Positions 5,154-62,282 of a stretch of DNA of 64,000 nt are shown here, in pieces. The stretch is from a virus. The translations under genes were made by a program, and so were the position numbers. The notes beneath the pieces are model-generated. The model saw only the letters and a program-made list of their open reading frames with translations. It ran no database searches and was not told the DNA's origin. The stretch lies in the IMG/VR virus record IMGVR_UViG_3300002026_000021; one strand, written 5' to 3'. How positions within the stretch are numbered: the first letter of the stretch is position 1; every line of letters begins with the position of its first letter.

Positions 5154-5534
5154 TCATAATAATTCTCCTTTATCAGTATTTTGCTTAACAGCTTTAGCTA
5201 ACCAAACTTCTTCCTTATCCTTAACGCCGTAATCACCTTCTACACTTATATCAGAGGAATAATTATTAGCTTTTAAATAATTCTTTAGTTCTAATTCTGA
5301 CTCAAAAAACTTAGTTATTTCTTCTTCATCTTTCTCACAGAGTACACAATTACAGTCATGTTCAATAACCATATAAACTTTAATACCCTTAGATGATATA
5401 AAAGCATAATTATTATTACTAAGAATATCAGCATAACCTCCATTCTTTTTATTATAATGAAAATAAGCTAATATAGGTTCAGCAATCCAATTAATATTCT
5501 TATCAGTAATTTCTATTAGATATTTATCTTGCAT
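5154..5534 (-). CDS. hypothetical protein (126 aa)
   Basis: ORF in track. Confidence 0.5.
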   Translation of the reverse strand: MQDKYLIEITDKNINWIAEPILAYFHYNKKNGGYADILSNNNYAFISSKGIKVYMVIEHDCNCVLCEKDEEEITKFFESELELKNYLKANNYSSDISVEGDYGVKDKEEVWLAKAVKQNTDKGELL

Positions 5535-6415
5535 TATACCCCCCTTATTTTTTCACCAGAACTTAAATCAAATAATGATAAGAATCGAGTCATAAAATCC
5601 CTTCGCTCTATATTAATATATTCATTAGCAGATTCTAAGGTTGTATGGTATGATGGATAATCCTCATGACTAAAAGTATCACACATTACTGCCATATACT
5701 TAAAACCATCATTAACACCACTATTAAAATACTCTTGAGTTTCCTGATTATAGTCTTTAATAGTAGAAGTATTAATAGCTTTTGTTTCTAATACTTTTTT
5801 ATCAAGTAAATCTTTAAGAATTTTAGTCTTATCAATGTAATCCCAATTATCAGGTTTTATACTCATTGCGAACTCTACTTCTGGATATGACCATAATTGC
5901 CATGAATGTAATTCTATATTAACATTAAGTCTCTTACCATTAGGAATATCCCCATTCATATTTAATTTATCCCATTTATTATAAGTATTATCTTTATAAT
6001 GAATATGCCCATGTAATTGCCAAGAATTATAATGAGATTTATTCCAACATAGCATAGGATAATGACATAGAGTAATTGCTTGTTTATTTACTTCCATATC
6101 CTTTATCATTGATACAGACTTTAATGCTGAATGTATATATCCATTAGGAACTTTATCATGGTTCCCTAATACCCAATGGAAGTTAACACGCTTGGATTTA
6201 AACTTATTAAAGAAAATATCTAAATCTTCTTTCTTAGAATTCCATCTTAAATCACCTACATAGAATAAATTATCTCCTGGCTTTAATACTTCAAAAGCAT
6301 TATCAATAATCTTTTCTTCTAGTTCTTTATGAGTAACATATCCTTTACGAGCTTCAAATCGTAATGACCTTTCATGATCTAAATGCCAGTCTGAAGTAAA
6401 ATATGCGTCATTCAT
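5534..6415 (-). CDS. calcineurin-like metallophosphoesterase
   Basis: SDWHLDH, YVGDLRWN, GNHDK and HGHIH match phosphoesterase motifs I-V. Confidence 0.7.
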   Translation of the reverse strand: MNDAYFTSDWHLDHERSLRFEARKGYVTHKELEEKIIDNAFEVLKPGDNLFYVGDLRWNSKKEDLDIFFNKFKSKRVNFHWVLGNHDKVPNGYIHSALKSVSMIKDMEVNKQAITLCHYPMLCWNKSHYNSWQLHGHIHYKDNTYNKWDKLNMNGDIPNGKRLNVNIELHSWQLWSYPEVEFAMSIKPDNWDYIDKTKILKDLLDKKVLETKAINTSTIKDYNQETQEYFNSGVNDGFKYMAVMCDTFSHEDYPSYHTTLESANEYINIERRDFMTRFLSLFDLSSGEKIRGV

Positions 6416-6765: not shown

Positions 6766-7039
6766 AATTCCAAGGTGCTTTTCTACTTTTTTGTAATTTT
6801 ATTACAAAGTAAATAAAGGTAATTGGCCCCATTAATAACCCAATTTCATGGTCTTTATATGAACGAGTACTACCAATACCTGTAGTCCAAATAGTAAGAT
6901 TATCCTCATTTTTCATTACTTTTCGTAATCCTGAAATTCCAATAAACTTTCTATAATCAGATTCTGAGGCCACAAGAAACCATCTGATTAATAATGCACA
7001 ACAATACAAAGTTATTAAGAAACTTAATAAGAATACCAT
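6752..7039 (-). CDS. small membrane protein (95 aa)
   Basis: Two hydrophobic segments (LLSFLITLYCCALLI; LLMGPITFIYFVI). Confidence 0.45.
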   Translation of the reverse strand: MVFLLSFLITLYCCALLIRWFLVASESDYRKFIGISGLRKVMKNEDNLTIWTTGIGSTRSYKDHEIGLLMGPITFIYFVIKLQKSRKAPWNFDNY

Positions 7040-8122
7040 TTAAAACTCCTTATGACAATTTGTCACACTAAACGTAGGACAATTTCTACAATGTTTACTA
7101 TAAATGCAATTACAATTTGCTGATGAAGGAATTAGTTTTAATCTAAATTCTTCTACTCTAGGATGATGCCAGACTGAATCAAAATCATCATAATCATTAA
7201 CAGGAATTCCTGATTCCCATCCTACCTCCCCTTCAGTAAAAGAACAAGGAAAAAACTCACCATCAGCATTAATATAAGAAGAGAATAATGTTGATTCACA
7301 AGGTTCTCCTACATTAGAAATATAATCAAATTGATTAATATCAAATGACTTAAATACAATAGGTGCTGAACAAGAATCAAATCCTAAGTTCAATGATTTT
7401 GATTTAGCATACTCCATTAACTTTCTATACTTATCAATATCAGTAACTGAATGAAACTTACCAGCATTCCTTCCTTTAGGCTTATATGCTAATAACACTA
7501 ATGCATTTAAATTCTTAGTTCTACTGTCTGTAGTTAATTCATCAATTAAATCAAAAGTATCTGAATAATATTCATCCATTAAAACATGATGAACATTGAC
7601 TTGCTTCATACCAGCAGTAGTTAATTTCTGAATAGCATTAAAGGCTACTTCCTTATCGTGAATTGATACGGCTGTGGCACCGCATAATCTTACAGTTTCC
7701 TTAACAGCATTATCATCTAAGTCAAATCCTGATGTAGTATAATTAGGAATTACACCGTGTTCCCTACTGAACTCCATCATATGAAAAAAGTCAGGATTAG
7801 AATAGATATCAGTAATTCCGAACGCTATTTGAGTTAATAATTTCTTTTTAGTTATCTTATTAAAGATACTAACGAATGTATCGAATGTCATGTTGACTGA
7901 AGGCCCAGACCCATTAGCTTTATAACAAAAAGCACAAGCTTGGGAACAGGGACCATATGAAATTTCTAAGTCTAAAATTTCAGGAGCAGGAGCTAAGTTA
8001 GGGTCTTCTTCCTTAGTTGAACCCCATCGTTGAAATACTCCTGTAGTCTTATCAAAATTAAAATTGTACTTATGACTCCTGACTACCTTAACTTTATCAT
8101 CCTCTTTAACAATAACCCGCAT
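7040..8122 (-). CDS. radical SAM enzyme with C-terminal Cys-rich (SPASM-like) region
   Basis: CSQACAFC is the CxxxCxxC radical-SAM cluster motif; C-terminal CNCIYSKHCRNCPTFSVTNC. Confidence 0.65.
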   Translation of the reverse strand: MRVIVKEDDKVKVVRSHKYNFNFDKTTGVFQRWGSTKEEDPNLAPAPEILDLEISYGPCSQACAFCYKANGSGPSVNMTFDTFVSIFNKITKKKLLTQIAFGITDIYSNPDFFHMMEFSREHGVIPNYTTSGFDLDDNAVKETVRLCGATAVSIHDKEVAFNAIQKLTTAGMKQVNVHHVLMDEYYSDTFDLIDELTTDSRTKNLNALVLLAYKPKGRNAGKFHSVTDIDKYRKLMEYAKSKSLNLGFDSCSAPIVFKSFDINQFDYISNVGEPCESTLFSSYINADGEFFPCSFTEGEVGWESGIPVNDYDDFDSVWHHPRVEEFRLKLIPSSANCNCIYSKHCRNCPTFSVTNCHKEF

Positions 8123-8165
8123 ATTATCTCCTACTTAAAGTATATACTAAAAACATTTAATTGTC

Positions 8166-8197
8166 AATAAAAAACCTGAAATATTTCTACTTCAGGT
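8166..8197 (-). terminator. intrinsic terminator (duplicate of the 34527-34560 hairpin) followed on the minus strand by a TTGACA-N17-TATACT promoter (8138-8166)
   Basis: aaaaaaCCTGAAatatttctaCTTCAGGtttt. Confidence 0.6.
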
Positions 8198-8207
8198 TTT
8201 AATTTAA

Positions 8208-8717
8208 CTATAGCTTTAAACTCTTCAAAAACTCAGAATACGTTTTGAACTTCTCTTTCAGTTCTTTTAGTAAGGTACTTTCTTGTAAATTAAATTTATT
8301 ATAAACATAATTTACATATTCATTATCATAGAGCTTCTTTCTTCTTGCATTAAGCTTTTTAACCTCTGCAAAAACTTCTTCCTCGGTAATCTTATATGCT
8401 TCTGCTAAGTATCTTTTAATGTCAGGCTTAGAGCTAATTTCAAATTGACAAATAGGACAATAAGCTTCTTTAAGATAATCATCATCATACCTACTTTCGT
8501 CTTCTTCATCAATATCAGCACTAAGCATTAATTCATCAATACTCTGGTCATCGGTTTTGATAACTTCTTCATCACAGATAGTATGACCATTTTCACAATT
8601 AACAAATTCATACTCCCTATAATCATCACCATCATAAATTACTTCTGTTCTACCACAAATATCACAAACGAAGGATGATGATGAAGAGTTTGAAACGAAT
8701 CCTAATCTTGTTTTCAA
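8208..8717 (-). CDS. paralog 1 of the MKTRLGFVSNSSSSSF family (169 aa; Zn-ribbon CDICG..CPICQ)
   Basis: Identical 16-aa N-terminus shared with the ORFs at 8714, 9025 and 9409; divergent remainder. Confidence 0.6.
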   Translation of the reverse strand: MKTRLGFVSNSSSSSFVCDICGRTEVIYDGDDYREYEFVNCENGHTICDEEVIKTDDQSIDELMLSADIDEEDESRYDDDYLKEAYCPICQFEISSKPDIKRYLAEAYKITEEEVFAEVKKLNARRKKLYDNEYVNYVYNKFNLQESTLLKELKEKFKTYSEFLKSLKL

Positions 8718-9028
8718 TTATCTGTACCTCCATCTGTATACCAACTAATATCACTAATAGTAATAGTAAGTTCAGGGAATAATTTATTAATCTTTTCTAC
8801 AAGTTCTTCTTTAGTCTGTTTAATGGTTTTTTCCTCATCAATCTTTTCAGGATATACCCCTAAAAATAAGCCATCATAATCAGAGATACCATAAGAATAA
8901 TCAAATTCTTCATAATTATGGTAATCCATTTCATCAAACTTCTCTCGTTGTTCACCCGATAATGAAATTCCTAATAAACAGAATGAACTAGAACTACTAT
9001 TACTAACAAATCCTAATCGTGTTTTCAT
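8714..9028 (-). CDS. paralog 2 of the MKTRLGFVSNSSSSSF family (104 aa)
   Basis: Conserved N-terminus encoded with synonymous codon differences. Confidence 0.6.
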   Translation of the reverse strand: MKTRLGFVSNSSSSSFCLLGISLSGEQREKFDEMDYHNYEEFDYSYGISDYDGLFLGVYPEKIDEEKTIKQTKEELVEKINKLFPELTITISDISWYTDGGTDN

Positions 9029-9405
9029 TCTTCCTCCTCATCTAAATAATCTTCCTCAAATTCTTCATAATCGCCAGAACTCCATCTGTCATGATAATCA
9101 ACTTCAAAAGTATAAATCATATCCCCTGGCTCTAATGAATTAATTTCTTCTAATGTTAATGCTTCACCATTACCCTCATTTACTACTTTCTTTACTGCAT
9201 AAAATTCACAGTCTTGAAACTCTTTTCCTTTGTATTTAGTTTTAAACTTATCATCAAGTTCAAAGGCTTCTACACCTTCAGTAAGACTTGAACCAATAAA
9301 CCAAACTGATTTGTAATCATCAACATCTTCAAAACTAATTTCCTTACCTATTAATACGAATGAAGATGATGATGAATTAGAAACGAATCCTAATCGTGTT
9401 TTCAT
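9025..9405 (-). CDS. paralog 3 of the MKTRLGFVSNSSSSSF family (126 aa; highly acidic C-terminus)
   Basis: Conserved N-terminus; C-terminal DYEEFEEDYLDEEEE. Confidence 0.6.
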   Translation of the reverse strand: MKTRLGFVSNSSSSSFVLIGKEISFEDVDDYKSVWFIGSSLTEGVEAFELDDKFKTKYKGKEFQDCEFYAVKKVVNEGNGEALTLEEINSLEPGDMIYTFEVDYHDRWSSGDYEEFEEDYLDEEEE

Positions 9406-9408
9406 TAA

Positions 9409-9771
9409 TTACCCCCAATGATTTCTTTGTATTGCAATATTCTCTAAAGCTTCTTGAATCCCCCAAGGAATTGAATTATCATCAGTTGAATCAATAACTA
9501 ATACTTCTTTATAGTCTTTTTCATCTAGGTATATTTTAGTAGTATTACAAGAATAATTAAAATCTCTAACCCTATCAAAATAACTCTTAGAATTAATTGT
9601 ATAAATAGTACAAATTTCATCAACAGTTTCATTAAAAGTATCATCAATAATTTTAATTGATTCTATTTGTTTTTCTATAAATTCTCTTATTTGACCTTCA
9701 GTAAACTTCTTTGGGTCAAGAATAAAAGAACTAGAAGAACTGTTGCTAACAAATCCTAATCGTGTTTTCAT
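9409..9771 (-). CDS. paralog 4 of the MKTRLGFVSNSSSSSF family (120 aa)
   Basis: Conserved N-terminus. Confidence 0.6.
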   Translation of the reverse strand: MKTRLGFVSNSSSSSFILDPKKFTEGQIREFIEKQIESIKIIDDTFNETVDEICTIYTINSKSYFDRVRDFNYSCNTTKIYLDEKDYKEVLVIDSTDDNSIPWGIQEALENIAIQRNHWG

Positions 9772-10364
9772 TAGTGTGTCCTATATGCCGAAACAGTTAG
9801 GTTCATATCAGCGAATCCTCTTACACCTAAATCAGCAGAAGATACATATGAAGTAGTATTAGCTGATTTAAAATTCATTGATTGAGCTTCACCAAATACA
9901 TCAAAATTAGCACCTAAAAATACAAATTCCCAATTATACTTATCTTGCTGGTGTTTAATCTTTTCCCCTAATTCTTTTTTATCATTATAAGGGTAATTAG
10001 ATTGATTCTCTTGACCATCAGTCATAACTACAATCATTACTTTTTCTGGTCTATTAAACTCTTCTTCTTCAGATAATGCTAATCCAACTTCATCAATAGT
10101 TTTCCACATTGCTTCTAATAAAGCAGTACCACCAGAAGGACGATAATCTTTCTTAGTAAATTTATCAATAATTTGGATTGATATCCTATTCATTTGTTTT
10201 ATAATATTAGTATCAAATTGAATTAATGTAAACTTAGCGTCTCCTGGTAATTTCTTCTGTTCTTCAATAAAGGTGTTTAATCCACCGATGACATCTGATT
10301 CAGTTCCACCCATTGAACCAGACTTATCTAAAATTAATACTATTTCTGTTAATCCTTTCTTCAT
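9771..10364 (-). CDS. von Willebrand factor A (vWA) domain protein
   Basis: LILDKSGSMGG is the MIDAS DxSxS motif; a later Thr/Asp follows. Confidence 0.6.
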   Translation of the reverse strand: MKKGLTEIVLILDKSGSMGGTESDVIGGLNTFIEEQKKLPGDAKFTLIQFDTNIIKQMNRISIQIIDKFTKKDYRPSGGTALLEAMWKTIDEVGLALSEEEEFNRPEKVMIVVMTDGQENQSNYPYNDKKELGEKIKHQQDKYNWEFVFLGANFDVFGEAQSMNFKSANTTSYVSSADLGVRGFADMNLTVSAYRTH

Positions 10365-10419
10365 TGTAATCTCCTTATACTAAAGTATATACTAAATACT
10401 TCATTTTGGCTATTAAAAT

Positions 10420-11091
10420 CTAATCCCAATGTAACATTTTTTCTAGTTCTTGAATTTCAAACTGTGATAAATTAGTTTCCATTAACTTTTGAGCTATATT
10501 AGTTTTATAACTCTCATCTCTATCTTCCCAATCCTGCAATATCTTTAATACCTCTAATGTAGCTATATGATACCCTTTCTGTAGATATTTAGATACACGA
10601 TATACTTGGGCAATAGGGCAATGAATATTCTTAATAACTAATTTTAAATGTTGTTCATCCTCAATAGAATCATCATCAGCAATAGCTTCTAAAACACCAT
10701 TAATAATACTAAAGATACCAAAACGAGCTATAGTAAAATCAAAGCTTTCCATGATTTCCTCTATAGAACCCTTAGCTACAATCCTTCCAGATACTTTAGG
10801 CTTAATTAATTGTAATGGTAACTTACCTTTAGCACAGAACCTATAAGTCTCTGCTACTTCTGATTCAAATTGTAATGAATATCCATTAGAACCCATACGA
10901 TTCTTAATGTTAGTAAATGATTCATCTGAAGGACAATAGATATCAATGTCCTCAGATACAATAGGTCGGTCCCGTGTTGAACAAGAATATCTAGCGAATC
11001 CCCCACAGATAAATCCATCATTTTTAATAATGTCTTTAAATAGATATTCTAGTACTTCTTTATTTCTAACGATATCAGTAGTAACAAACAT
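10420..11091 (-). CDS. hypothetical protein; possible minimal nucleotidyltransferase fold
   Basis: CGGFARYS...SEDIDIY resembles the GS-x(n)-DxD polymerase-beta-like NTase motif. Confidence 0.35.
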   Translation of the reverse strand: MFVTTDIVRNKEVLEYLFKDIIKNDGFICGGFARYSCSTRDRPIVSEDIDIYCPSDESFTNIKNRMGSNGYSLQFESEVAETYRFCAKGKLPLQLIKPKVSGRIVAKGSIEEIMESFDFTIARFGIFSIINGVLEAIADDDSIEDEQHLKLVIKNIHCPIAQVYRVSKYLQKGYHIATLEVLKILQDWEDRDESYKTNIAQKLMETNLSQFEIQELEKMLHWD

Positions 11092-11704: not shown

Positions 11705-12328
11705 TTAATCCTCCTTATCTTCTTCAGCCGATTCTAAATTTTCTAAGTATTTAATATACCCTAAACCCATAATAGATAAATCTTCAAAGGAAACAGAATC
11801 ATAGAGCTTGCAAGGGTAATAAATATCTTCAGATGACTTATACTTAGTAAAATCCTTAGAATAGAATCGTTCTGATTCTGCTAAAGGTTGAGTATTACAA
11901 CCTTTATATACTTCTAGCCTCTTTGTATCTAAATCAATAACATAGGCGTATTCACAGAATAATGAATCAGAAATAAAAGTAGTGTTATCTTCAAGTTCTC
12001 GAACGCCTTTATTACAAATTAAATCTAAGATACCAGAGCCAACATCTCTATGGAATTGAGGATAGTTCTCATGAAACTTCTTAGATACTCCCATATCAAC
12101 CATATCCGAATTAGGATTAGCTCCACACTCTATCCATTTATTTTTAATATCTTCTTCATTAGTAAATTTACAATCTCTAATAGCTAGAACAAACTTAGGT
12201 AAATCCATAGAATTAATAAACTTAACAATACTCTTACCCTGACCTGAGAAGTATCCATCCCATTGTCCATACTGAGCTACCTTAATCTGCTTGTCTAACA
12301 CTACCATAGTTAAATGTCTAGTTCCCAT
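11705..12328 (-). CDS. hypothetical protein (207 aa)
   Basis: ORF in track. Confidence 0.5.
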   Translation of the reverse strand: MGTRHLTMVVLDKQIKVAQYGQWDGYFSGQGKSIVKFINSMDLPKFVLAIRDCKFTNEEDIKNKWIECGANPNSDMVDMGVSKKFHENYPQFHRDVGSGILDLICNKGVRELEDNTTFISDSLFCEYAYVIDLDTKRLEVYKGCNTQPLAESERFYSKDFTKYKSSEDIYYPCKLYDSVSFEDLSIMGLGYIKYLENLESAEEDKED

Positions 12329-16088: not shown

Positions 16089-18317
16089 TTATATCTCCTT
16101 AAAATTTAAACCAATTCCAATTTTAGAATCAGTTGATGAACAATACTGATGAAGTAAATCCATAAAAGGAAATTCCTCTATTTTAGATTTATCCACCCAT
16201 TCGTCAATATCATTATCTGTTAACTCCTTTCGTTCATTAAACTTCTTATTTAAGAATCTTTCTAATTTAGAACTATCAACTTCTTTAAGAAAGCGTTCTA
16301 ATCTCTTTCTAGTATATGCAACTTTTTTAGTTTTGTCAATAAAGAAATCTCCTGAATTAACATTTAATTTTGTGAACTCATTATTAGTATTATATACATA
16401 ATAATTATAATTATCAGTACTTGACCTAAGTGACTTTCCTTTCCTAGATTCATCAATTTCATACTTCCTAAAGAAAATAGTATTTGAAGTGTCTTCTCCT
16501 TCTTTTTTAATACTATTAAGATACTCAATAATATTACTTTTATTATCAATATTAAAAGCATTATATAAAGAGTAAAAATCATTAATAGTCAATACTCTAT
16601 CAGCAATATTTTCTTTAAAGAATGTATCTATGATAGGTTTAAAGTTCTTATTATATTTGCCCTTCCATAGATATGCTTCAGAGGAACTACTCTTCATTTC
16701 AGGAGATAAAAACTTAATATCTGTAGTAGTATACTCTCCCCAACGTGAAATTCTTCCTAATCGTTGTAATATAGATTCAAAAGAAAATAAAGTAATTTCC
16801 CCTGATGAATAAGAAACATCCATAGCTTTCTCACCAATGAAAGAAGTAATAAAACTCTTATCGACATTATTCATTGTGTTCTTACCAAAGTACTCATAAA
16901 TCTTAGTAAGTATTTTATATTTATCTTCATCAGTATACCTACTATGTAATAACAAATCTAAATTAGAATTAAGATAATTTTGTTGAACTTGTTTAATTGT
17001 ATTAAAGAAATAAACACATCCTGATTTTTTTTCAGGAGTATATAGTTCATCGATATTCTTTAAAGAACAAGCAAACTTAGTTTTATTAAAAGATTTAAAA
17101 TGTTCATCATTAGAGGGTAGTACATCAATATTAGTTTTATTACTAATAAATAAATTATGATGCCAAGAAGGAGTAGCACTTAATAATAATGTATTACACT
17201 TTATTCTACTAGACCTAATTTGCATTATTCTTAAAAATAAGGAATATAGTCTAGGAGAATCAGATAATGAATGATACTCATCAAAGATAATATTTCTATT
17301 AAACATATTAATAGCATACTCTAGCATATGAGATTTATACAAAGAGAAATAGTAATTGTCAATATTAGTAACAATTATATCAGAGCTATAATTATTGCCT
17401 TCATCTGTTGAACTTACTACGGATGAAGAGAGAAATAATTCCACAGATATATTAATATTATTACATTTGATTTCAGTAAGAATATTATTATATACAGAGG
17501 TAGCAGTATTATTATCTGGACAAACCCAAATAGTCTTTTGTTTATACTTATGAATCCAATATAGACCCATTAGTGTTTTTCCATATCCTGTAGGAGCTTT
17601 TATGATTGCTGTTTTATTTTTAATGCTATCTATAATAGGTTTTTGCTCTGATTCAAATCTGTATTTATAGTCTTCGTTAATAGTAATAGAGAAATCTAAA
17701 TCATTACTACTTTCCTCAATATCTTTTGAAACAAGTCTATCAGCAGTAAATAAAATACTTCTAATAATTAGAGTATCATTAAAATCACCACATTTATAAT
17801 TAAATATGGTTGGGGTAGAGTAATCATTAGTAGAGTCTTTCCTTCTAAAATTAATATACTTCCAGTCTCTTTTTGAGAGAAGCTCTAAATATACTTTTTC
17901 TAGTATCTCTAAGTCCTCACTAGAAATAAAACTCAAAATTTCATTAGCTGAAGAAAAATAATATTTTTCCTTTAATCTTAGAGATACCGTATTATATACA
18001 TATGTACGGTGTGAGAAGTATAAAGAATCTAAAATAGCTCCTTCATCATCAGCTTGTATTTTTTTAATTATAAATGCCCAAGCTACTTCATTATGATGAG
18101 GATATAAGTAATTACTTTTTAATTCTCCTTTTAATTGCTTCTGAAATACAGGAAGAACTTTACCAATATCGTGAAAAAGAGTTACAAATAATACTCGTTC
18201 TCTAGTCTCTTCATCAGAATTAAAATAATTAGAAAAATAATTATCAGCTTTGTTCATAACGGCAAGAGAATGACTTAAAATTGTAGATTCAGAATTCGCT
18301 GGTTGATTTAAATACAT
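16089..18317 (-). CDS. cas3: Cas3 HD-nuclease/SF2-helicase (742 aa, no Cas2 fusion)
   Basis: N-terminal HD domain (LSHSLAV ... VTLFHDIGK); helicase motif I APTGYGKT; motif II FDEYH (DExH); motif III LLLSATPS. Consensus promoter directly upstream at 18355-18383. Confidence 0.85.
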   Translation of the reverse strand: MYLNQPANSESTILSHSLAVMNKADNYFSNYFNSDEETRERVLFVTLFHDIGKVLPVFQKQLKGELKSNYLYPHHNEVAWAFIIKKIQADDEGAILDSLYFSHRTYVYNTVSLRLKEKYYFSSANEILSFISSEDLEILEKVYLELLSKRDWKYINFRRKDSTNDYSTPTIFNYKCGDFNDTLIIRSILFTADRLVSKDIEESSNDLDFSITINEDYKYRFESEQKPIIDSIKNKTAIIKAPTGYGKTLMGLYWIHKYKQKTIWVCPDNNTATSVYNNILTEIKCNNINISVELFLSSSVVSSTDEGNNYSSDIIVTNIDNYYFSLYKSHMLEYAINMFNRNIIFDEYHSLSDSPRLYSLFLRIMQIRSSRIKCNTLLLSATPSWHHNLFISNKTNIDVLPSNDEHFKSFNKTKFACSLKNIDELYTPEKKSGCVYFFNTIKQVQQNYLNSNLDLLLHSRYTDEDKYKILTKIYEYFGKNTMNNVDKSFITSFIGEKAMDVSYSSGEITLFSFESILQRLGRISRWGEYTTTDIKFLSPEMKSSSSEAYLWKGKYNKNFKPIIDTFFKENIADRVLTINDFYSLYNAFNIDNKSNIIEYLNSIKKEGEDTSNTIFFRKYEIDESRKGKSLRSSTDNYNYYVYNTNNEFTKLNVNSGDFFIDKTKKVAYTRKRLERFLKEVDSSKLERFLNKKFNERKELTDNDIDEWVDKSKIEEFPFMDLLHQYCSSTDSKIGIGLNFKEI

Positions 18318-21690: not shown

Positions 21691-21751
21691 TCACTCTACA
21701 ATAATAGTATATACTAAATAACCAGTATTGTCAATTAAAATCGTAAAAATA

Positions 21752-24302: not shown

Positions 24303-24478
24303 ATACTCTACATCTGGACCGTGTGGGTAGCGACCCCTACGTTAACCTTTTCGGTTAGAGCGGAACCTTCCGTCGGCCCTCAGTTAGTGAATTAAAAAAC
24401 GTAGGACGAGAGCATCTCGGTCCCCTTGCCATCTAGGTCATTTTCTAACTCACTATAACAAGTATATACTAATTATCA

Positions 24479-31718: not shown

Positions 31719-33029
31719 TTACTGCTCTTCTTCCATATCAGTAATCAAGTCTTTAACAGCCGCTTCTGATTCTCCTAATAAGAACTTCTCTGATTTGAGC
31801 TTAAAGCTATCAATACCTCCAATCTCTCTACGAAGTACAATTCCTTCATCAGCGGTATTAACATTAACACAGTCTAAACAATTCTTTTCTAAGAAGTCTC
31901 GCTTTAAATTAGCTAGGAAATTAACATGCCAATTCTCATCAACATCTAAATCAGGATACATGTCTTTAGCACGACCATAGTAAAACTCTTGAACACATTC
32001 AACACCTAACTGATTACAGCGTTCTTTAACCTGACGAGTAGAGTACTCTATAGCATTTCCATCCTCATCAATGGTCTGGAATCTATATACAAATATCTTT
32101 GCTTCCTTTTCCTTAGCACCATAGTTGTATACATTCTTACCAATCTTCTGAATTGGAGCACCATCAGGGGTATATCCTACAATTTCGTAGTAAACTACTT
32201 CACCCTTATTAAGCTTACCAAAGAAGAAACTATTACCAATTTCAGACCATAAATCTGTAGAGTAGAAATGAGCCTTTTCTGATTTGTTCTCAATACCTAC
32301 AATCTTCTTAGTAACTCTACGAGAACCATATACATAATGGTATTCAGTATCATTAATTCTAGCACCAAATACCTTAGCAATTTTCTCTAAGATGGTCAAC
32401 TTCCTAGTTACTAATACATTACCAGTACGAGAACTTGTTCCGTGCATTTTGCGTGACACCCAAATAACATCATCGGGGTTAACCCTATTAATATTGCGAA
32501 TAAGCTGGTCAGTATCAATGTGTTCAGGGAAATGACCAGGGACTATCTTGCTCTCATCCTTCTTATGCTTCTGATTCTTTCCAGAATTATTAACAGACTT
32601 TACAGGAGGTGTATACTTATGACACACAGGGATATTATTCAATTCAGTAAAGGCAAATCCCTCTACAAAGTCTATTTGGGGAAAAAGCTTAATAAACTTA
32701 TCTAGTTCAATAACCAATCCATTAGAAATCTGTCCACGTAACCGAACTACACGAACTCTATTATTCTTTCCTAAGTAGGTTCCAATAGACTTAAAGTCAG
32801 GGTCTTTGAAGTTAGGATTAAGTTTATCTAACTCATCAATAATATCCTGCTCAATACAAAGATTTGAGTCAAAGTAGACTACTAGAGTCCCCGGTATAGT
32901 ATCCTTTCCTACAACTACAGTAGTAATAGGAACCCCATTAAGCTCTACTACTGCTGACTTAATATTTTCAGCACCTTCAATGTCATTAATGACAGAAAGC
33001 TTACCGATAAATGCTTGGTTATTCTCCAT
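31719..33029 (-). CDS. RNA ligase-like nucleotidyltransferase (Rnl2-type motif I)
   Basis: WVSRKMHGTSSR resembles the KxHGxN adenylylation motif I (T4 Rnl2 KIHGTN); 436 aa with an N-terminal extension. Confidence 0.5.
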   Translation of the reverse strand: MENNQAFIGKLSVINDIEGAENIKSAVVELNGVPITTVVVGKDTIPGTLVVYFDSNLCIEQDIIDELDKLNPNFKDPDFKSIGTYLGKNNRVRVVRLRGQISNGLVIELDKFIKLFPQIDFVEGFAFTELNNIPVCHKYTPPVKSVNNSGKNQKHKKDESKIVPGHFPEHIDTDQLIRNINRVNPDDVIWVSRKMHGTSSRTGNVLVTRKLTILEKIAKVFGARINDTEYHYVYGSRRVTKKIVGIENKSEKAHFYSTDLWSEIGNSFFFGKLNKGEVVYYEIVGYTPDGAPIQKIGKNVYNYGAKEKEAKIFVYRFQTIDEDGNAIEYSTRQVKERCNQLGVECVQEFYYGRAKDMYPDLDVDENWHVNFLANLKRDFLEKNCLDCVNVNTADEGIVLRREIGGIDSFKLKSEKFLLGESEAAVKDLITDMEEEQ

Positions 33030-34572: not shown

Positions 34573-36855
34573 CTAATGACATTTACTAGAGCCACAATCA
34601 GCACAAGCTACACAACCGTCTTGATAAATTAAATTAGTACTACCACAATTTGTACATACCTTAGAGGATTTTACTTTCTCCCCCTCTTTAATATACTTTT
34701 TTAAAACACGAGATATAGCTTTACCAAATGAAACGAAACTCTTATCCTTTGTTAACTGGTCACAAAGGAATTGTAAAGGAGTTCCATGTCGTAATGATGT
34801 AGAAATTAATCTTAGTAATGATTCATAATCAGGATTGAATACTTTTCCAATATTCTCAATAGCTACTTTCTCAACACCATTCTGAACAAGTAAACTATAG
34901 TTACCTTTTGACTTCTTTCTAATAATTCCTTTACCATATTTAATAGCCATATCAAAGTTATCATCAGTAGTTATTGTAGTAGCGAATATCTCATAAGGCT
35001 CATCATTATATAATCCTACTAAAATTAAGAATTGTTCTTCTTTAACCTTTACTGAAAATACTTCACATGGTAAATCTTCAGGACGTTTAGGAGCATTATG
35101 CTGTTCAATACTTCCTGATAGTTTTTCCTTTTCCTTTAACATTCTATTATAATTCTTTTCAGTAATTAATACTCCTGATAAAGAACCTTCACGATAAACA
35201 GTAATACCTTTCATTCCTGATTTCCATGCAGACATATAAACGTCTTCTACATCTTTAGTGGTGCAGTTCTCATCCATATTAAAGGTAACAGAAATTGCTG
35301 AATCTATCCATCTTTGTATTTCTGAAACAAGTTTAATCTTATCTAATGGGTTAACATCAAAAGACATTACCCATTTATGTCCGACAAGTTCATCAGCATT
35401 TTCTTTAGTTACATCTAATTTATGCTCATTTAAATATCTTTCTACATAAGCATTAAAAGAAAACCATTCTTTCCAATCCTTAGTAGTAGACCTTTCTCTT
35501 CTTACCATATAACGAGAGTATAAAGGTTCAATACCAGAGCCACCACAATTAGATATTAATGATCCTGATCCTACAGGGGCAATTGTATTATAACAAACAT
35601 TAAATTGGTATTCTAATATTTCTTCATTAATAACATTATTATCAAGTAATCGTTTAATAAAATCAGAGTTCTTTATTTTTATTTTATCATAAAGAGGAAA
35701 AGAACCATATTCCTTACCTAATTCATATCCTGTTTGATAGGACCATTTAGCTAAGTCTGTAAATAATGAATGAGCAATAATAATACTCTCTTCAGAGCCA
35801 TACGAAATACCTAAATCTATTAAATAATCTGCTAATCCAGTTACTCCTAATCCAATTCTAGGTAAATTAACTAATTTTTCTTTTTGTTCCATAGTAGGAG
35901 AACGATTATCATTAAACTCATTAATACGAACAGCATTTAAGAACTTAATACCGAATTTAATAAGTTTAATATAACCATCATAACCATATTCTAAATATTT
36001 AGCTAAATTAATATGAGAGAGGTTACATACATTTTCAGGGTCTAACCATTGTTCTGAACACGCATTAGTGCTAGTTACTTCATAGCCTAGTGCATCTGAA
36101 TTACTATTACGCTTAGAGATATCAATAAATTGTAAACCGGGGTCAGCACGTTTATGTGCATTATTAATAATTTTATTCCATAAATCTCTAGCTTTAATAA
36201 CATGCTCTATTTCTTCATATTTATTATTAAAGTGTAAAACCCAATCACCATCATTTTCTACTGTACGCATAAAAGCATCAGTAGTTTGGATTGAAATATT
36301 AGCAGTATCAATACGAGATTTATCATCTTCGTGCTTATCTTTAATACTAATAAATTCTTCAATATCAGGATGACTATCTCTAATAGAAATTAATGAAGCA
36401 CCCCTGCGGCCCTGCTGTGCTATAACTTTTAATACAGAGTCATATAAAGCCATAAAGGAAACAGCACCTGTTGATACACGAGAACTATTATGTACCTTAG
36501 CTCCTCTAGGACGTAGTTTAGAAATATCGATTCCCTCGCCTTGTCCGAAAGCGGCGTACTTAGCCCATTTATATAATGAATTAAAAATATCTTCTAAATT
36601 ATCCTCAACTGGTCTTAGTGTTGTACAATTAATATGACTAACATTTTGATTAGGATTTCCGGCGGCTCTCCAAATCCCCCCAGCAGGAATAAACCATTGC
36701 TTGTTTATATATTCTCTAGCTTCTTCTTCTATTTCTGGATAAACCTTTGCTACTGATTTAACAATACGCTCTACAGCTTCATCTGGTTCTGATTCTGATT
36801 CTAATAGATATTTTGACCTAAATACCTGTTCTGCTAATTGAGATTCAAAGTTCAT
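34573..36855 (-). CDS. ribonucleotide reductase large (alpha) subunit, probably class II-like (C-terminal Zn-ribbon; no beta subunit seen)
   Basis: GQGEGIDISKLRPRGAKV...STGAVSFM and QGRRGASLISIRDSHPDIEEFI match RNR alpha motifs; TNACSEQ is the radical-Cys NxCxE motif; C-terminal CTNCGS...CVACADCGSSKC. Confidence 0.7.
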   Translation of the reverse strand: MNFESQLAEQVFRSKYLLESESEPDEAVERIVKSVAKVYPEIEEEAREYINKQWFIPAGGIWRAAGNPNQNVSHINCTTLRPVEDNLEDIFNSLYKWAKYAAFGQGEGIDISKLRPRGAKVHNSSRVSTGAVSFMALYDSVLKVIAQQGRRGASLISIRDSHPDIEEFISIKDKHEDDKSRIDTANISIQTTDAFMRTVENDGDWVLHFNNKYEEIEHVIKARDLWNKIINNAHKRADPGLQFIDISKRNSNSDALGYEVTSTNACSEQWLDPENVCNLSHINLAKYLEYGYDGYIKLIKFGIKFLNAVRINEFNDNRSPTMEQKEKLVNLPRIGLGVTGLADYLIDLGISYGSEESIIIAHSLFTDLAKWSYQTGYELGKEYGSFPLYDKIKIKNSDFIKRLLDNNVINEEILEYQFNVCYNTIAPVGSGSLISNCGGSGIEPLYSRYMVRRERSTTKDWKEWFSFNAYVERYLNEHKLDVTKENADELVGHKWVMSFDVNPLDKIKLVSEIQRWIDSAISVTFNMDENCTTKDVEDVYMSAWKSGMKGITVYREGSLSGVLITEKNYNRMLKEKEKLSGSIEQHNAPKRPEDLPCEVFSVKVKEEQFLILVGLYNDEPYEIFATTITTDDNFDMAIKYGKGIIRKKSKGNYSLLVQNGVEKVAIENIGKVFNPDYESLLRLISTSLRHGTPLQFLCDQLTKDKSFVSFGKAISRVLKKYIKEGEKVKSSKVCTNCGSTNLIYQDGCVACADCGSSKCH

Positions 36856-41723: not shown

Positions 41724-42212
41724 TCACTCCTTGTTAATCTCATTAACAATTTTATTAAAAGCTGTTATTGTGTTTACTCTTGAATCTGCCATTTTTTTAC
41801 CTAGTAAATAGTCTTCAACTATTTGTATTTCTTTAGATAAGTCTACTTTAGGTTTATGTTCAAATTCATATTCACAACCTTCATAAAATTTACATTTAGT
41901 ACATACTTTATTTTCAGGAATAAGTGTCCAATCTGAGCAATAAGAAGTTTCTAAGTATGTTCTTACTTCCTTCTTTCTTAAACAGAAAACTTGTCTAACC
42001 TTATTTTTATCTATTGAAAACTCACAGCTAGAAGAACAATTTTCACAACTAATGTCCTTAACTACTGGTGAGGTATCCTCGTTTAAGTGTTCTAATTTTT
42101 CTACCCTACGGTAAAGGTCCATAAGAGCATCAATAGTATCAGAACTCAATTTATTTTTAGGTTCAGTAATAGCACAATAAAAATCAAGGTCACCTTTTAT
42201 TTTTTGCATCAC
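41724..42212 (-). CDS. Cys-rich hypothetical protein (162 aa)
   Basis: CENCSSSCEF ... CTKCKFYEGC. Confidence 0.5.
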   Translation of the reverse strand: MMQKIKGDLDFYCAITEPKNKLSSDTIDALMDLYRRVEKLEHLNEDTSPVVKDISCENCSSSCEFSIDKNKVRQVFCLRKKEVRTYLETSYCSDWTLIPENKVCTKCKFYEGCEYEFEHKPKVDLSKEIQIVEDYLLGKKMADSRVNTITAFNKIVNEINKE

Positions 42213-43818: not shown

Positions 43819-45867
43819 ATGCCATTTGAGTTTGGTTCACTAACAACACAGACAAAGAAAAAAGAGATAGGATTAAATAAAAAGAACCCAATACTCTTTA
43901 CTGATATTAAGAGTAATAAGATGGTTGTATTCTTATTTGATGGATTTTACCCACAATCATTATTAAATGCTTTTAAGATATGGATTAGAAAGAGTTTACC
44001 TAACCACTCGATACTAGGACTCTCTACTGTATTAGTAGATATTAAATCTGATGAGCTTACTCAGATTGTTGATTTCTACTCCCGCTTACATATAGATTTT
44101 AATACATATCTAAAAGAGTATGAGCAGTATGAAAAAGTTTATGTAACTTTAGGTAGAGCTATTTATGCTGTTACTGAATCTGATGACATTTCTATAGAAG
44201 ACTTTTATGATTTTATCTTCAATAAGACGTATTTCTACTCACCTAAGTTAAAAGCAAAAGTATTTCCTATCGACCATCCCACTAGTATGTTTAAGGATTC
44301 ATTACAATCTTGGATGCCAGCAGATAGAGCAAGAACACATTTTGCTGAGTTCCAATTCAAATGTATTAATAATAACTTTGACTTTTTAGTACAAGAAGCT
44401 AAAAAGGATGAACCTTATTATTTAACTTTCTTCAATACTAAAGAAGAAGTTAGTAATTTCTTTTTAGAGAATAAAGAATATAGTAGTATTACTGCATACG
44501 ACATTGAAACGGATTCCTTTGACTTTTATTTAGGGCATATAGGATGTATAACATTATCATTAGATGGTACTAATGGATATTATTTACCAATAGAATTAAT
44601 TGATATTAATCAGTTTGCTGACTTTATGATGAACAAAAAGATTATAGGTCAGAACCTAAAGTTCGATAATAAGTTCATAAGAAAACTATCTGGTAAATCC
44701 CTATATGTATATTCTGATACAATGGTATTAGCTCAAACCCTTTGTGAGTTTAGAAGGAATTCTTTAAAGTCATTAGCTTGGTACTATACTACATTAGGTG
44801 GATATGATTCTGAATTAGAGGAATTCAAAAAGAAGTTTAAGATAAAGACATACTTAGATATTCCTACTCCTATTTTAGCTAAGTATGCTTCTTTAGACCC
44901 TGTAGTAACATTTAGAGCCTATAGGGAAATGTCAGAACAATTAGAATCTATTGATAAGAAGTTTCCTCCTAAAGGTAATGGAAAAACTATTAAGTATTTC
45001 TATGAAGAAATTATGATGCCTTCCTATAGAGAGTTTATTGATATTGAATATGAGGGTATGTATGTTAATAAGGAAAACCATGAGAAGTTAACTCAACGGA
45101 TTTTAACTGATTTGGAAGTAACGAAAAAGTTTATATTAGAAACATTGCTCATTACTAATGAAGATTTTAATTTAGATTCATCCAAGCAATTAGGTATTCA
45201 TATTGAAAATGCTTTGAAATGGAAAAACTACGGTAGAAATAAAGCTGGGGAGTATTTAACAGGAGATGAACAAATTGTTCGTTGGGTTAAAGATGGTAAT
45301 AGTGGTGCTAAGGAATTACAAAAGTATAGGTCATTATCTACACTATTAAAAACCTTTATGGGTCATCCTGGGACTACAGAGGGATGGAGAGAGTATTTTA
45401 GGGAACACTCTGATGGGTCTACTCGTATTCATGCTAAGTTTGGAATAGGTGTAGCTGAATCAAAACGGAATACATGCCGTGACCCTAATTTACAACAGAT
45501 GCCAGCACACGGTACTTATGCTAAAGATTTTAAGAAGATTATGGATGTTCCTCCTACTGATAATAATGGTGATTATTTATTTGGTTCATTAGATTATGCT
45601 TCATTACAGATTAGATTATGTGCTATTGATTCTCAAGATAAAACATTATGTAATATATATAAGTCTGACCCTGACCCTGACTTACACTCAACTACAGGAT
45701 ATGATTTAATTAAAGCTTCTAATTATACGTTTATTCAGTTTGAAGACAAAGGAACTAAATATGAGTTATATGAATTACAACCAGTATTAGTACTAAGGAG
45801 AGGTGAAGAGTTAGAAGTATTAGCTAAGAATATACTAGACTCTGACGAGTTTATAAAGGTGGTATAA
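43819..45867 (+). CDS. family-A DNA polymerase, N-terminal part (3'-5' exonuclease domain plus motif A)
   Basis: AYDIETDS is Exo I (DxE); SLDYASLQIRL matches motif A (DYSQIELR); DLHSTTGYD matches DIHTxTA. The ORF stops before motif B; motifs B and C are found in ORF 2583-3431. Confidence 0.7.
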   Translation: MPFEFGSLTTQTKKKEIGLNKKNPILFTDIKSNKMVVFLFDGFYPQSLLNAFKIWIRKSLPNHSILGLSTVLVDIKSDELTQIVDFYSRLHIDFNTYLKEYEQYEKVYVTLGRAIYAVTESDDISIEDFYDFIFNKTYFYSPKLKAKVFPIDHPTSMFKDSLQSWMPADRARTHFAEFQFKCINNNFDFLVQEAKKDEPYYLTFFNTKEEVSNFFLENKEYSSITAYDIETDSFDFYLGHIGCITLSLDGTNGYYLPIELIDINQFADFMMNKKIIGQNLKFDNKFIRKLSGKSLYVYSDTMVLAQTLCEFRRNSLKSLAWYYTTLGGYDSELEEFKKKFKIKTYLDIPTPILAKYASLDPVVTFRAYREMSEQLESIDKKFPPKGNGKTIKYFYEEIMMPSYREFIDIEYEGMYVNKENHEKLTQRILTDLEVTKKFILETLLITNEDFNLDSSKQLGIHIENALKWKNYGRNKAGEYLTGDEQIVRWVKDGNSGAKELQKYRSLSTLLKTFMGHPGTTEGWREYFREHSDGSTRIHAKFGIGVAESKRNTCRDPNLQQMPAHGTYAKDFKKIMDVPPTDNNGDYLFGSLDYASLQIRLCAIDSQDKTLCNIYKSDPDPDLHSTTGYDLIKASNYTFIQFEDKGTKYELYELQPVLVLRRGEELEVLAKNILDSDEFIKVV

Positions 45868-61595: not shown

Positions 61596-62282
61596 TTATT
61601 TAAATGACATTAGTGTATCAAATACAGCAGAGTAATATCCATTAGAAAACTCTACTTTATCTTTTATATTACCAGCAGATTCCTGTAATGAAACTGCTTC
61701 TTTTAATTTAATTTTAATATAGTTATATACTTCTTCTTCTGTAAGTGTTGCTAATGCTTTTTTTGTATAATCAATTGTATCATTAATTGCTTGTAAATAA
61801 CCTGATTCAAAAATAGATTTTTTACTTTTTTCTGAGTATAACTTCCATTTTTCTGATAGTACCTTTTTTGTTGCAGATTCTTTAAATAATTTTTTAACAG
61901 GCTCAGGTGTAGGTTCTATATTAGCTTCAATAACAACAGATTCATTTTTTTCTTCAATATTAACAGATTCATTAACAGATATTTGCATTGATTCCTTTAA
62001 CTCACAGGAATCTTTCCAAGGGATATGATATGTATTATCAGCAATTACTTCTAAATATGAGGATACTATCTTTGTTCCTGTTTCTTTTAGTATATATTTT
62101 AATGGAGGTAATACTACTTTAGCTATTTTTTCTTCAATTTTCCCTTTAATAGCTAAAGAGACTCCTGAGTCTAAATTAAGAATAAGTCTAGCTTCAGGAA
62201 GAGTTTTATTTCCTTCTACATTTATATTAAACTTTAATGTAACTTCTTTATCTACTAATACTGAAATCATTTTTATCTCCAT
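61596..62282 (-). CDS. hypothetical structural-module protein (228 aa)
   Basis: ORF in track. Confidence 0.45.
   Translation of the reverse strand: MEIKMISVLVDKEVTLKFNINVEGNKTLPEARLILNLDSGVSLAIKGKIEEKIAKVVLPPLKYILKETGTKIVSSYLEVIADNTYHIPWKDSCELKESMQISVNESVNIEEKNESVVIEANIEPTPEPVKKLFKESATKKVLSEKWKLYSEKSKKSIFESGYLQAINDTIDYTKKALATLTEEEVYNYIKIKLKEAVSLQESAGNIKDKVEFSNGYYSAVFDTLMSFK

Follow-up and report, generated by a model that had tools for sequence, protein, structure and literature searches.

An N-terminal tag shared by unrelated phage proteins is a probable recognition site of a co-encoded radical-SAM enzyme

Four adjacent genes on the minus strand of a 64,000-nucleotide stretch of viral DNA (IMG/VR record IMGVR_UViG_3300002026_000021; the whole stretch is referred to hereafter as the window) encode proteins that begin with the same 16 residues, MKTRLGFVSNSSSSSF, followed by dissimilar sequences. 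Next to them lies the gene of a radical S-adenosylmethionine (SAM) enzyme of 360 residues with a probable C-terminal Fe-S domain of the SPASM/twitch type (7040–8122, minus strand), the proposed modifier of the shared N-terminus. We suggest, on the strength of comparative sequence analysis, that these 16 residues probably form a portable tag through which the co-encoded enzyme recognizes, and probably modifies, a set of otherwise unrelated proteins. This reading is favored because the motif and the enzyme predict each other whichever of the two is used to select loci, because both genes co-occur in cultured phages, because variants of the tag follow the clades of the enzyme, and because the enzyme has the fold of peptide and protein maturases.

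The initial annotation of the window had described four tandem open reading frames (ORFs) with a common N-terminus at 8208–9771, and both the coordinates and the shared sequence proved exact: MKTRLGFVSNSSSSSF heads each of P1 (8208–8717, 169 residues), P2 (8714–9028, 104 residues), P3 (9025–9405, 126 residues) and P4 (9409–9771, 120 residues), with literal translation of the TTG start codon of P1 giving L as its first residue. The tag itself is encoded at 8670–8717, 8981–9028, 9358–9405 and 9724–9771, respectively, all on the minus strand, and a six-frame scan of the window found no fifth copy. Alignment of the coding DNA revealed synonymous variation between the copies in serine (TCA/TCT/AGT/AGC, that is, TCN/AGY swaps), phenylalanine (TTC/TTT) and arginine (CGA/AGA) codons. 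Therefore, as had been surmised, it is the peptide that is conserved. Past residue 16 the four proteins show no significant similarity to one another (local alignment z-scores of 0.2–2.2 against shuffled sequences), which agrees with the earlier description of their downstream parts as unrelated. All four are acidic, with isoelectric points of 4.58 (P1), 4.33 (P2), 4.15 (P3) and 4.66 (P4), the C-terminal end of P3 being DYEEFEEDYLDEEEE; P2 belongs to a family whose members end in W-[YRH]-[DN]-G. P1 carries three Cys/His knuckles (C18-x2-C21, C41-x3-H45-x2-C48 and C87-x2-C90) that are likely to bind Zn; the Zn-ribbon initially assigned to one of the four proteins is plausible on this account, while its description as a double one could not be confirmed.

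The tag is not confined to this phage. A strict DNA pattern encoding M-K-x-x-h-G-F-h-S-N-S5-F, applied to IMG/VR, returned 115 loci with 142 ORFs, in all of which the motif stands at the initiator codon. A profile of residues 1–20 recovered the leader, which the initial annotation had proposed to look for in other phages, in 1,054 copies from 369 fetched viral and cellular loci; the motif, M-K-x-R-x-G-F-V-S-N-S-S-S-[ST]-S-F, is always located at the extreme N-terminus and N10 is identical in 1,054 of 1,054 copies. The 233 unique tagged proteins linked to an enzyme gene give the consensus M-K-[IVT]-R-x-G-F-V-S-N-S-S-S-[ST]-S-F-[IV]-[IV], in which positions 2, 4, 6–12 and 15 are at least 97% conserved, these being positions where the search pattern allowed alternatives; position 5 is free in ORFs beside enzyme homologues. 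Scanning one genome per prokaryotic species yielded a further 93 tagged loci, mostly in metagenome-assembled genomes (MAGs) of many phyla, with Acetatifactor, Veillonella, Lachnobacterium and Flagellimonas among the isolates. Tagged hosts span Firmicutes, Verrucomicrobia and archaeal MAGs, and the contigs that bear the tag range from ~5 kb to >500 kb.

The presence of the tag is closely coupled to that of the radical-SAM family. Among the 115 viral loci selected by the motif, 54 contain an enzyme homologue on the same strand, and many of the 61 loci without one have little upstream flank. The distance between enzyme and tag is ~3.4 kb or less in nearly all of these loci (one copy, in locus L066, lies 5.8 kb away), and 52 of the 54 have their tagged genes on the downstream side of the enzyme gene. 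An enzyme gene is likewise present within 8 kb in 49 of the 93 loci from cellular assemblies. Conversely, in 80 viral loci fetched with a nine-sequence enzyme alignment alone, a regular-expression search found the tag in 69, with 293 copies in total and a median of four per positive locus. As an internal control, 292 of these 293 copies lie on the strand of the enzyme gene and one on the opposite strand. Adding variant tags (GHVSN..., SFVSN...) found with the 20-residue profile raises the number of positive loci to 74 of 80, and up to nine tagged ORFs per locus are seen by the strict pattern or ten by the profile search. Every locus fetched from sample 3300045988 (human-metagenome contigs of ~100–160 kb) has tagged ORFs, with the enzyme gene ~3.4 kb upstream wherever the flank suffices. 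Variation in the tag also follows the enzyme: an H7 variant occupies all four copies in one phage (L132), and a T9 variant is found in loci with a divergent enzyme clade (25–30% identity) and in those of the bacterial type. Variants that are common to all copies in a genome and that track enzyme clades are expected of co-evolution between an enzyme and its substrate or ligand.

Five of the six enzyme-selected loci without a tag belong to KP15-like phages of the T4 type, and the sixth ends 1.3 kb downstream of the enzyme gene. We considered whether the KP15-like phages might be genuine enzyme-only exceptions and rejected this, as KP15_97 and KP15_102 both start with MKIRSGFVSNSSSSSF and are encoded 20 kb from the enzyme gene, KP15_135. 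Across 50,697 cultured phages, the enzyme was found in 173 records and a protein of the KP15_102 type in 175, with much the same genera represented in both (Klebsiella, Enterobacter, Cronobacter, Citrobacter, Escherichia, Raoultella, Pseudotevenvirus and Buttiauxella); the enzyme records also include one Vibrio and two further genera. Both genes are present in those cultured phages that appear among the matches listed for both searches, for example Matisse, K14-2, PTP25, KP1 and Lychee. In PHROGs, KP15_102 represents phrog_7397 (6e-116) and the window enzyme falls into phrog_7293 (2e-81); both are labeled as being of unknown function, no link is drawn between them there, and most of the tagged families are unrepresented. 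In the surroundings of the pair in 81 loci, no further gene family is conserved (the next commonest occurs in 11), nor is a leader peptidase or an exporter. The lack of a conserved peptidase nearby suggests that the tag is probably retained by the mature protein.

This coupling is difficult to reconcile with a role of the shared N-terminus in expression or turnover only, whether by setting translation initiation or by acting as an N-terminal degron or stabilizer, without a connection to the enzyme. It is true that the tag starts every ORF and that its codons 2–8 are nearly identical in the window (as is expected from codon bias at 31% GC). However, the synonymous variation described above argues for selection on the peptide, the conservation across Firmicutes, Verrucomicrobia and archaeal MAG hosts is unlike that of an expression signal, and such a role would not predict the presence of one particular enzyme family. 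We regard this explanation as highly improbable.

The SAM-cluster motif of the window enzyme is of the CX3CX2C form (C59-x3-C63-x2-C66), and there are nine further cysteines. Residues C63, C66, C251, C275, C293 and C348 are invariant among 82 homologues, and four more C-terminal cysteines (337, 339, 345 and 356) are present in the window protein. In Pfam, it scores 23.9 bits against Radical_SAM (cut-off 29.5) and 21.7 bits against SPASM (cut-off 21.5). From the cysteine pattern, at least one auxiliary Fe-S cluster is likely, whereas a second is uncertain. NCBIfam returned only matches far below their cut-offs, to mycofactocin, tungsten-cofactor and NirJ2 maturases and to SkfB, the best being mycofactocin maturase with 35.6 bits against a cut-off of 265, and no match to the FxsB or cyclophane maturase models. 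The structural model of the enzyme is of high confidence (predicted local distance difference test, pLDDT, of 94.5) and shows the partial TIM-barrel core; residues 1–50 form four short strands. Its nearest solved structures are SuiB, SkfB, anSME and CteB, followed by BlsE, viperin and EpeE, and Foldseek agrees. Such relatives point to enzymes that act on a bound peptide or protein. The top matches of a profile search of the PDB, to designed pentatricopeptide repeats, were spurious and were ignored. Members of the family, which comprises at least 2,800 clusters at 90% identity, have been named only as "MoaA/NifB/PqqE/SkfB family radical SAM enzyme", as SPASM protein or as hypothetical. In distant members (alignment columns 100–125) the first cysteine of the SAM cluster is displaced, with a spacing longer than CX3, and in the group from sample 3300045988 the middle cysteine of CxxC is missing, giving an unusual cluster-binding arrangement.

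If the tag is indeed the substrate, the enzyme would bind it in an extended form. SAM would be cleaved at the [4Fe-4S] cluster held by CX3CX2C, and the resulting 5'-deoxyadenosyl radical would take a hydrogen within F7-V8-S9-N10-S11-S12. The C-terminal Fe-S domain could then complete either a two-electron oxidation of serine to formylglycine, as in anSME and BtrN, or an intramolecular cross-link, as in SuiB, SkfB and CteB; a Phe7–Ser9 cross-link resembling three-residue cyclophanes, or an epimerization, would be alternative outcomes. Triceptides are three-residue cyclophanes made by SPASM enzymes at an aromatic-x-x motif, with a ring carbon joined to a C-beta, and F7-V8-S9 of the tag has this form, which we take to be a resemblance only. 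One enzyme would serve a whole set of small acidic proteins, four of them (P1–P4) in the window.

An alternative that retains the enzyme as partner is that the tag stays unmodified and serves as a docking handle, for instance by adding a strand to the N-terminal 50 residues of the enzyme, so that variable adaptors bring host or phage targets to a single catalytic subunit in the manner of F-box proteins. This would also account for the co-occurrence, for one enzyme having many partners and for the missing peptidase, and the four-strand N-terminal region is available for such an interaction. On the other hand, the closest structural relatives of the enzyme all act on a bound peptide, the Ser-rich invariance, with asparagine at position 10 in every copy, exceeds what a docking strand usually needs, and the small acidic variable domains contain no known binding folds detectable with Pfam. 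We also know of no precedent for adaptor subunits of SPASM/twitch enzymes. Docking is thus an unlikely explanation, though one that deserves mention ahead of the others.

The proteins behind the tag are strikingly diverse. BLAST clustering of 348 unique proteins on the sequence past residue 18 gave 111 clusters, of which 78 have a single member. P1 is one of 29 unique proteins with a CxxC...CxxxHxxC...CPxC pattern that cluster together, P2 falls into a cluster of 34 and P4 into one of three, and P3 is a singleton once the tag is removed; with the tag included, it has weak relatives in eight loci. The full-length P4 is 43% identical, and P1 44%, to ORFs of locus L024. Profiles of the 15 largest clusters, stripped of the first 20 residues, show no mutual homology by hhalign (best probability 34%), so that the earlier claim of unrelated downstream parts extends to whole families. 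Lengths of the 233 enzyme-linked proteins are 64–279 residues with a median of 131. Considerably longer tagged proteins were also observed (507 residues at 784–2307 of L224, 691 residues at 2376–4490 of L281, and bacterial examples of 500–700 residues), suggesting from their sequences that the tag can head large multi-domain proteins too. Only one of 51 representative proteins, a 258-residue member with a STAS-like DUF4325, contains a Pfam domain. Searches of P1–P4 against Pfam, NCBIfam, PADLOC and PHROGs gave only a tag-limited match of P1, P3 and P4 to phrog_7397, a family that matches the tag of 25 of the 51 representatives.

A search with the single sequence of P2 returned P2 alone, and its family was found with an alignment: 1,111 proteins at E≤1e-3 in a set of 5.8 billion, none of which is named or has a Pfam domain. 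Against 1.84 billion representatives at 50% identity, the family profile matched 9,497 at E≤1e-3 and 2,727 at E≤1e-10, and the surplus of weak matches probably consists of proteins sharing the tag only. The family has no sequence relatives in the PDB. An AlphaFold2 (AF2) model of P2 built from an 86-sequence alignment has an overall pLDDT of 61, with an alpha/beta core at residues 20–92 (block means 58–81). The invariant residues 1–16 are the least confident part (pLDDT ~32), and the conserved tail 94–104 is low as well. An N-terminus that is invariant and yet does not model well fits a linear motif better than the core of a fold.

These observations bear on the possibility that the tagged proteins form one fast-evolving superfamily, in which a strand, Ser-rich loop and second strand make up a structural or catalytic core element of a common fold, such as a phosphate- or metal-binding loop, and the radical-SAM gene partners them in some other way, e.g. 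by supplying a cofactor or small molecule. In favor of this, residues 17–18 of the tagged proteins are hydrophobic and residues 3–8 strand-like, and AF2 may simply fail at termini. Further to that, families unrelated by BLAST (in loci L002 to L196) end alike, in FGAGRNG, W[YR][ND]G, SGGxY or ISHH/ISNH, and internal acidic motifs recur along with the FGAGRNG, W[YR][ND]G and ISHH tails; tagged proteins terminate in G in 18% and in H in 12% of cases, compared to 6% and 2% overall. Against it stand the absence of homology among the 15 tag-less family profiles, the spread of lengths, in bacteria up to 500–700 residues, and of architectures, from Zn-knuckles to all-helical inserts, and the lack of any match to a Pfam, NCBIfam or PDB family. 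In addition, the conserved element always begins at Met1, which is typical of a tag. On balance, a common fold seems improbable, slightly more so than docking.

The initial annotation had also offered, as the first of two readings, a capsid-targeting leader of injected cargo proteins that is removed by a prohead protease, as in the internal proteins of T4. As with T4 IPI–III, there are several small paralogues with a short common N-terminus, acidic in this case, and KP15_97 (2516–2986 of locus L381) matches phrog_132, "head-tail adaptor", over residues 10–147 (8e-10). However, phrog_132 is matched by only one of the 51 representatives and KP15_97 has no relative in the PDB; the match may reflect a mixed or mis-named PHROG. 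The T4 prohead protease, gp21, cleaves at Leu/Ile-x-Glu, and Glu does not occur at any sampled position of the tag, leaving no such site. Unlike the T4 proteins, the tagged ones are also found in non-T4-like phages, on contigs from ~5 kb to >500 kb, and next to an Avs2-like NTPase in operons of bacteria, and their genes follow the radical-SAM gene rather than head genes. We therefore set this reading aside as extremely unlikely. Docking, a common fold and capsid targeting each explain less of the evidence than recognition of the tag as a substrate.

The second of the initial readings, a leader recognized by the adjacent radical-SAM enzyme as in precursors of peptides that are made on ribosomes and modified after translation (RiPPs), draws strong support from comparative genomics as far as the link to the enzyme is concerned, whereas the RiPP analogy holds in part. 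As in SuiB/SuiA (streptide), SkfB/SkfA and CteB/SCIFF, a conserved recognition sequence is encoded beside a maturase (in 74 of 80 enzyme-selected and 54 of 115 motif-selected loci). The RiPP partners, however, are peptides of 20–60 residues, while those described here are proteins of 80–280 residues with, according to the P2 model, folded domains. Here, the segment that is conserved is the very N-terminus, which is also the probable target, the contigs are mainly viral, Pfam detected no RiPP recognition element (RRE), no conserved leader peptidase or exporter accompanies the pair, and most members of the phage clade lack the canonical CX2CX5CX3C motif. By analogy, the pair resembles the maturation of sulfatases by anSME more than it does a cleaved RiPP leader, although the sulfatase motif (C/S)-x-(P/A)-x-R is absent from the tag, MKxRxGFVSNSSSSSF, the partners here are not sulfatases, and many unrelated proteins share one enzyme. 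A further parallel is offered by FxSxx-COOH peptides with the SPASM enzyme FxsB and by the peptide-processing modules of vWA-MoxR conflict systems, the motif being C-terminal and processing depending on a metallopeptidase (Kaur et al., eLife 2020, PMC7159879). There, as here, a short Phe/Ser motif and a SPASM enzyme occur together in conflict loci with a vWA protein nearby; the tag, in contrast, is a 16-residue N-terminal motif of different sequence and lacks a conserved peptidase.

Several observations weigh against recognition and modification of the tag by the enzyme. The entire case for modification comes from gene neighborhood and fold class. In the KP15-like phages the two partners are split by 20 kb, and in the window the enzyme gene and the array appear to be transcribed from promoters of their own, a hairpin lying in between. 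The tagged partners are far larger than RiPP precursors, and it is unusual for the conserved part itself to be the proposed target. Bacterial members of the enzyme family have the canonical CX2CX5CX3C SPASM motif and most phage members do not, and neither an RRE nor PqqD was matched by Pfam in the enzyme. The model of P2 is only moderately confident, so its low-scoring N-terminus could be a modeling failure, and the recurrent C-terminal tails hint at a common fold in which the N-terminus is structural.

As for the function of the variable domains, their diversity and acidity, their position among small genes of unannotated function and the bacterial context described below lead us to infer that they are probably fast-diversifying, host-directed phage effectors. 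A conserved operon found in Lachnobacterium bovis, Veillonella parvula and at least 12 further assemblies encodes the enzyme together with just one tagged protein, of 137 residues and with the T9 variant, in the order NACHT/Avs2-like NTPase with a trypsin-like N-terminus, 136-residue protein, tagged protein, enzyme and often a ~304-residue protein (e.g. L253 28–5206 and L260 152–3384). The ~304-residue protein has an "integron cassette protein" domain and the enzyme of this operon the canonical SPASM motif. By its gene content, the operon looks like a defense system that makes use of the tag/enzyme pair. Proteins with a von Willebrand factor A (VWA) domain and metal ion-dependent adhesion site (MIDAS), of ~210–250 or ~740 residues, were found by iterative search near tagged genes in ~17 of ~380 loci; one of them, KP15_100 (738 residues, 3827–6043 of L381), is encoded between two tagged genes. 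With so few loci involved, the VWA gene appears to be an occasional partner outside the conserved core. Nevertheless, the Avs2-like NTPase and the recurrence of VWA proteins point to a possible role in phage-host conflict. Extending the favored reading, it may be that the phages, like the bacterial Avs-like operon, possess a very large and so far unrecognized two-component system in which one enzyme places a new modification on the tag of >100 unrelated, fast-diversifying effector families comprising thousands of protein clusters, a proposal which we make tentatively and hold to be just short of evenly balanced.

A radical-SAM maturase acting on tagged substrates is in itself of a known kind; new are the N-terminal tag on proteins, the breadth of substrates per enzyme, the predominance of viruses and the scale. 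We found no description of the motif or of the tag/enzyme pairing in the open-access literature, and the paper on the KP15 and KP27 genomes (PMC5219037) mentions neither gene and reports no structural proteins. The tagged proteins are not covered by any curated family. If the tag is modified, SPASM/twitch radical-SAM enzymes would gain a new class of substrate and probably also a new reaction, whole proteins being marked by way of a portable N-terminal sequence of 16 residues. The logic of RiPP leaders would then have a counterpart at the level of proteins, with a common chemical handle or warhead mounted on changeable host-directed proteins. Such a modification would also provide a first mechanistic hypothesis for a large block of viral dark matter, as at least 9,500 clusters at 50% identity show a match to one tagged family's profile or to its tag. 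The hypothesis lends itself to direct testing: ~175 cultured phages of Klebsiella, Enterobacter, Cronobacter, Citrobacter and Escherichia have both genes, phages of the KP15 type are available in culture, and E. coli BL21(DE3) supports the growth of Escherichia phage Lw1. As a handle that brings in a protein-modifying enzyme, such a short tag could also be of use in biotechnology.

In the window, the array is headed by a gene for a 197-residue VWA-domain protein (9771–10364, minus strand; Pfam VWA_3 2e-07 and VWA 5e-06; phrog_7371). The stop of the VWA gene and the start of P4 overlap by 1 nt, P4 and P3 are separated by 3 nt, and P3/P2 and P2/P1 overlap by 4 nt each. The genes being overlapping or nearly abutting, we conclude that all five (VWA and P4 to P1) form one translationally coupled operon. 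A hairpin read from the sequence at 8172–8200 (minus strand), with an 8-bp stem (AACCTGAA/TTCAGGTT), a 10-nt loop and a following T-run, falls between the stop codon of P1 and a promoter-like site of the radical-SAM gene, and could be the terminator of the array transcript; it is absent from the scanner list owing to the loop limit of 8 nt applied there. The promoter-like site is of the sigma-70 type (TTGACA-17-TATACT, 11 of 12 matches; 8139–8167, minus strand), lies 17 nt upstream of the start codon of the enzyme and overlaps a copy of AAGTATATACTAAA. A weaker site with 9 of 12 matches, which also carries AAGTATATACTAAA, is located upstream of the VWA gene (10384–10412, minus strand). Six copies of AAGTATATACTAAA with at most one mismatch are present in the window against 0.3 expected (8138–8151, 10383–10396, 21705–21718, 24460–24473, 41895–41908 and 62086–62099). 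The first two lie just upstream of the start codons of the radical-SAM and VWA genes and overlap -10-like hexamers; from its placement, the motif is probably a phage promoter element.

Other neighbors on the minus strand include a 293-residue ORF (5534–6415) with an N-terminus that by eye resembles a metallophosphatase motif, a nucleotidyltransferase-like protein (10420–11091; phrog_4400 and phrog_1614) and a 207-residue protein (11705–12328) with homologues in five of the enzyme-selected loci; none of the three is consistently linked to the tag/enzyme pair. Nucleotide comparison (blastn) of positions 7000–11000 with the 50,697 cultured phages gave no match, nor did tblastn searches with P1 and P4. 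Elsewhere, the window encodes a helicase (16089–18317), an RNA ligase (31719–33029), the large subunit of ribonucleotide reductase (34573–36855) and a DNA polymerase (43819–45867), a content of replication and nucleotide-metabolism genes from which it appears to be such a region of a sizeable AT-rich (31% GC) phage.

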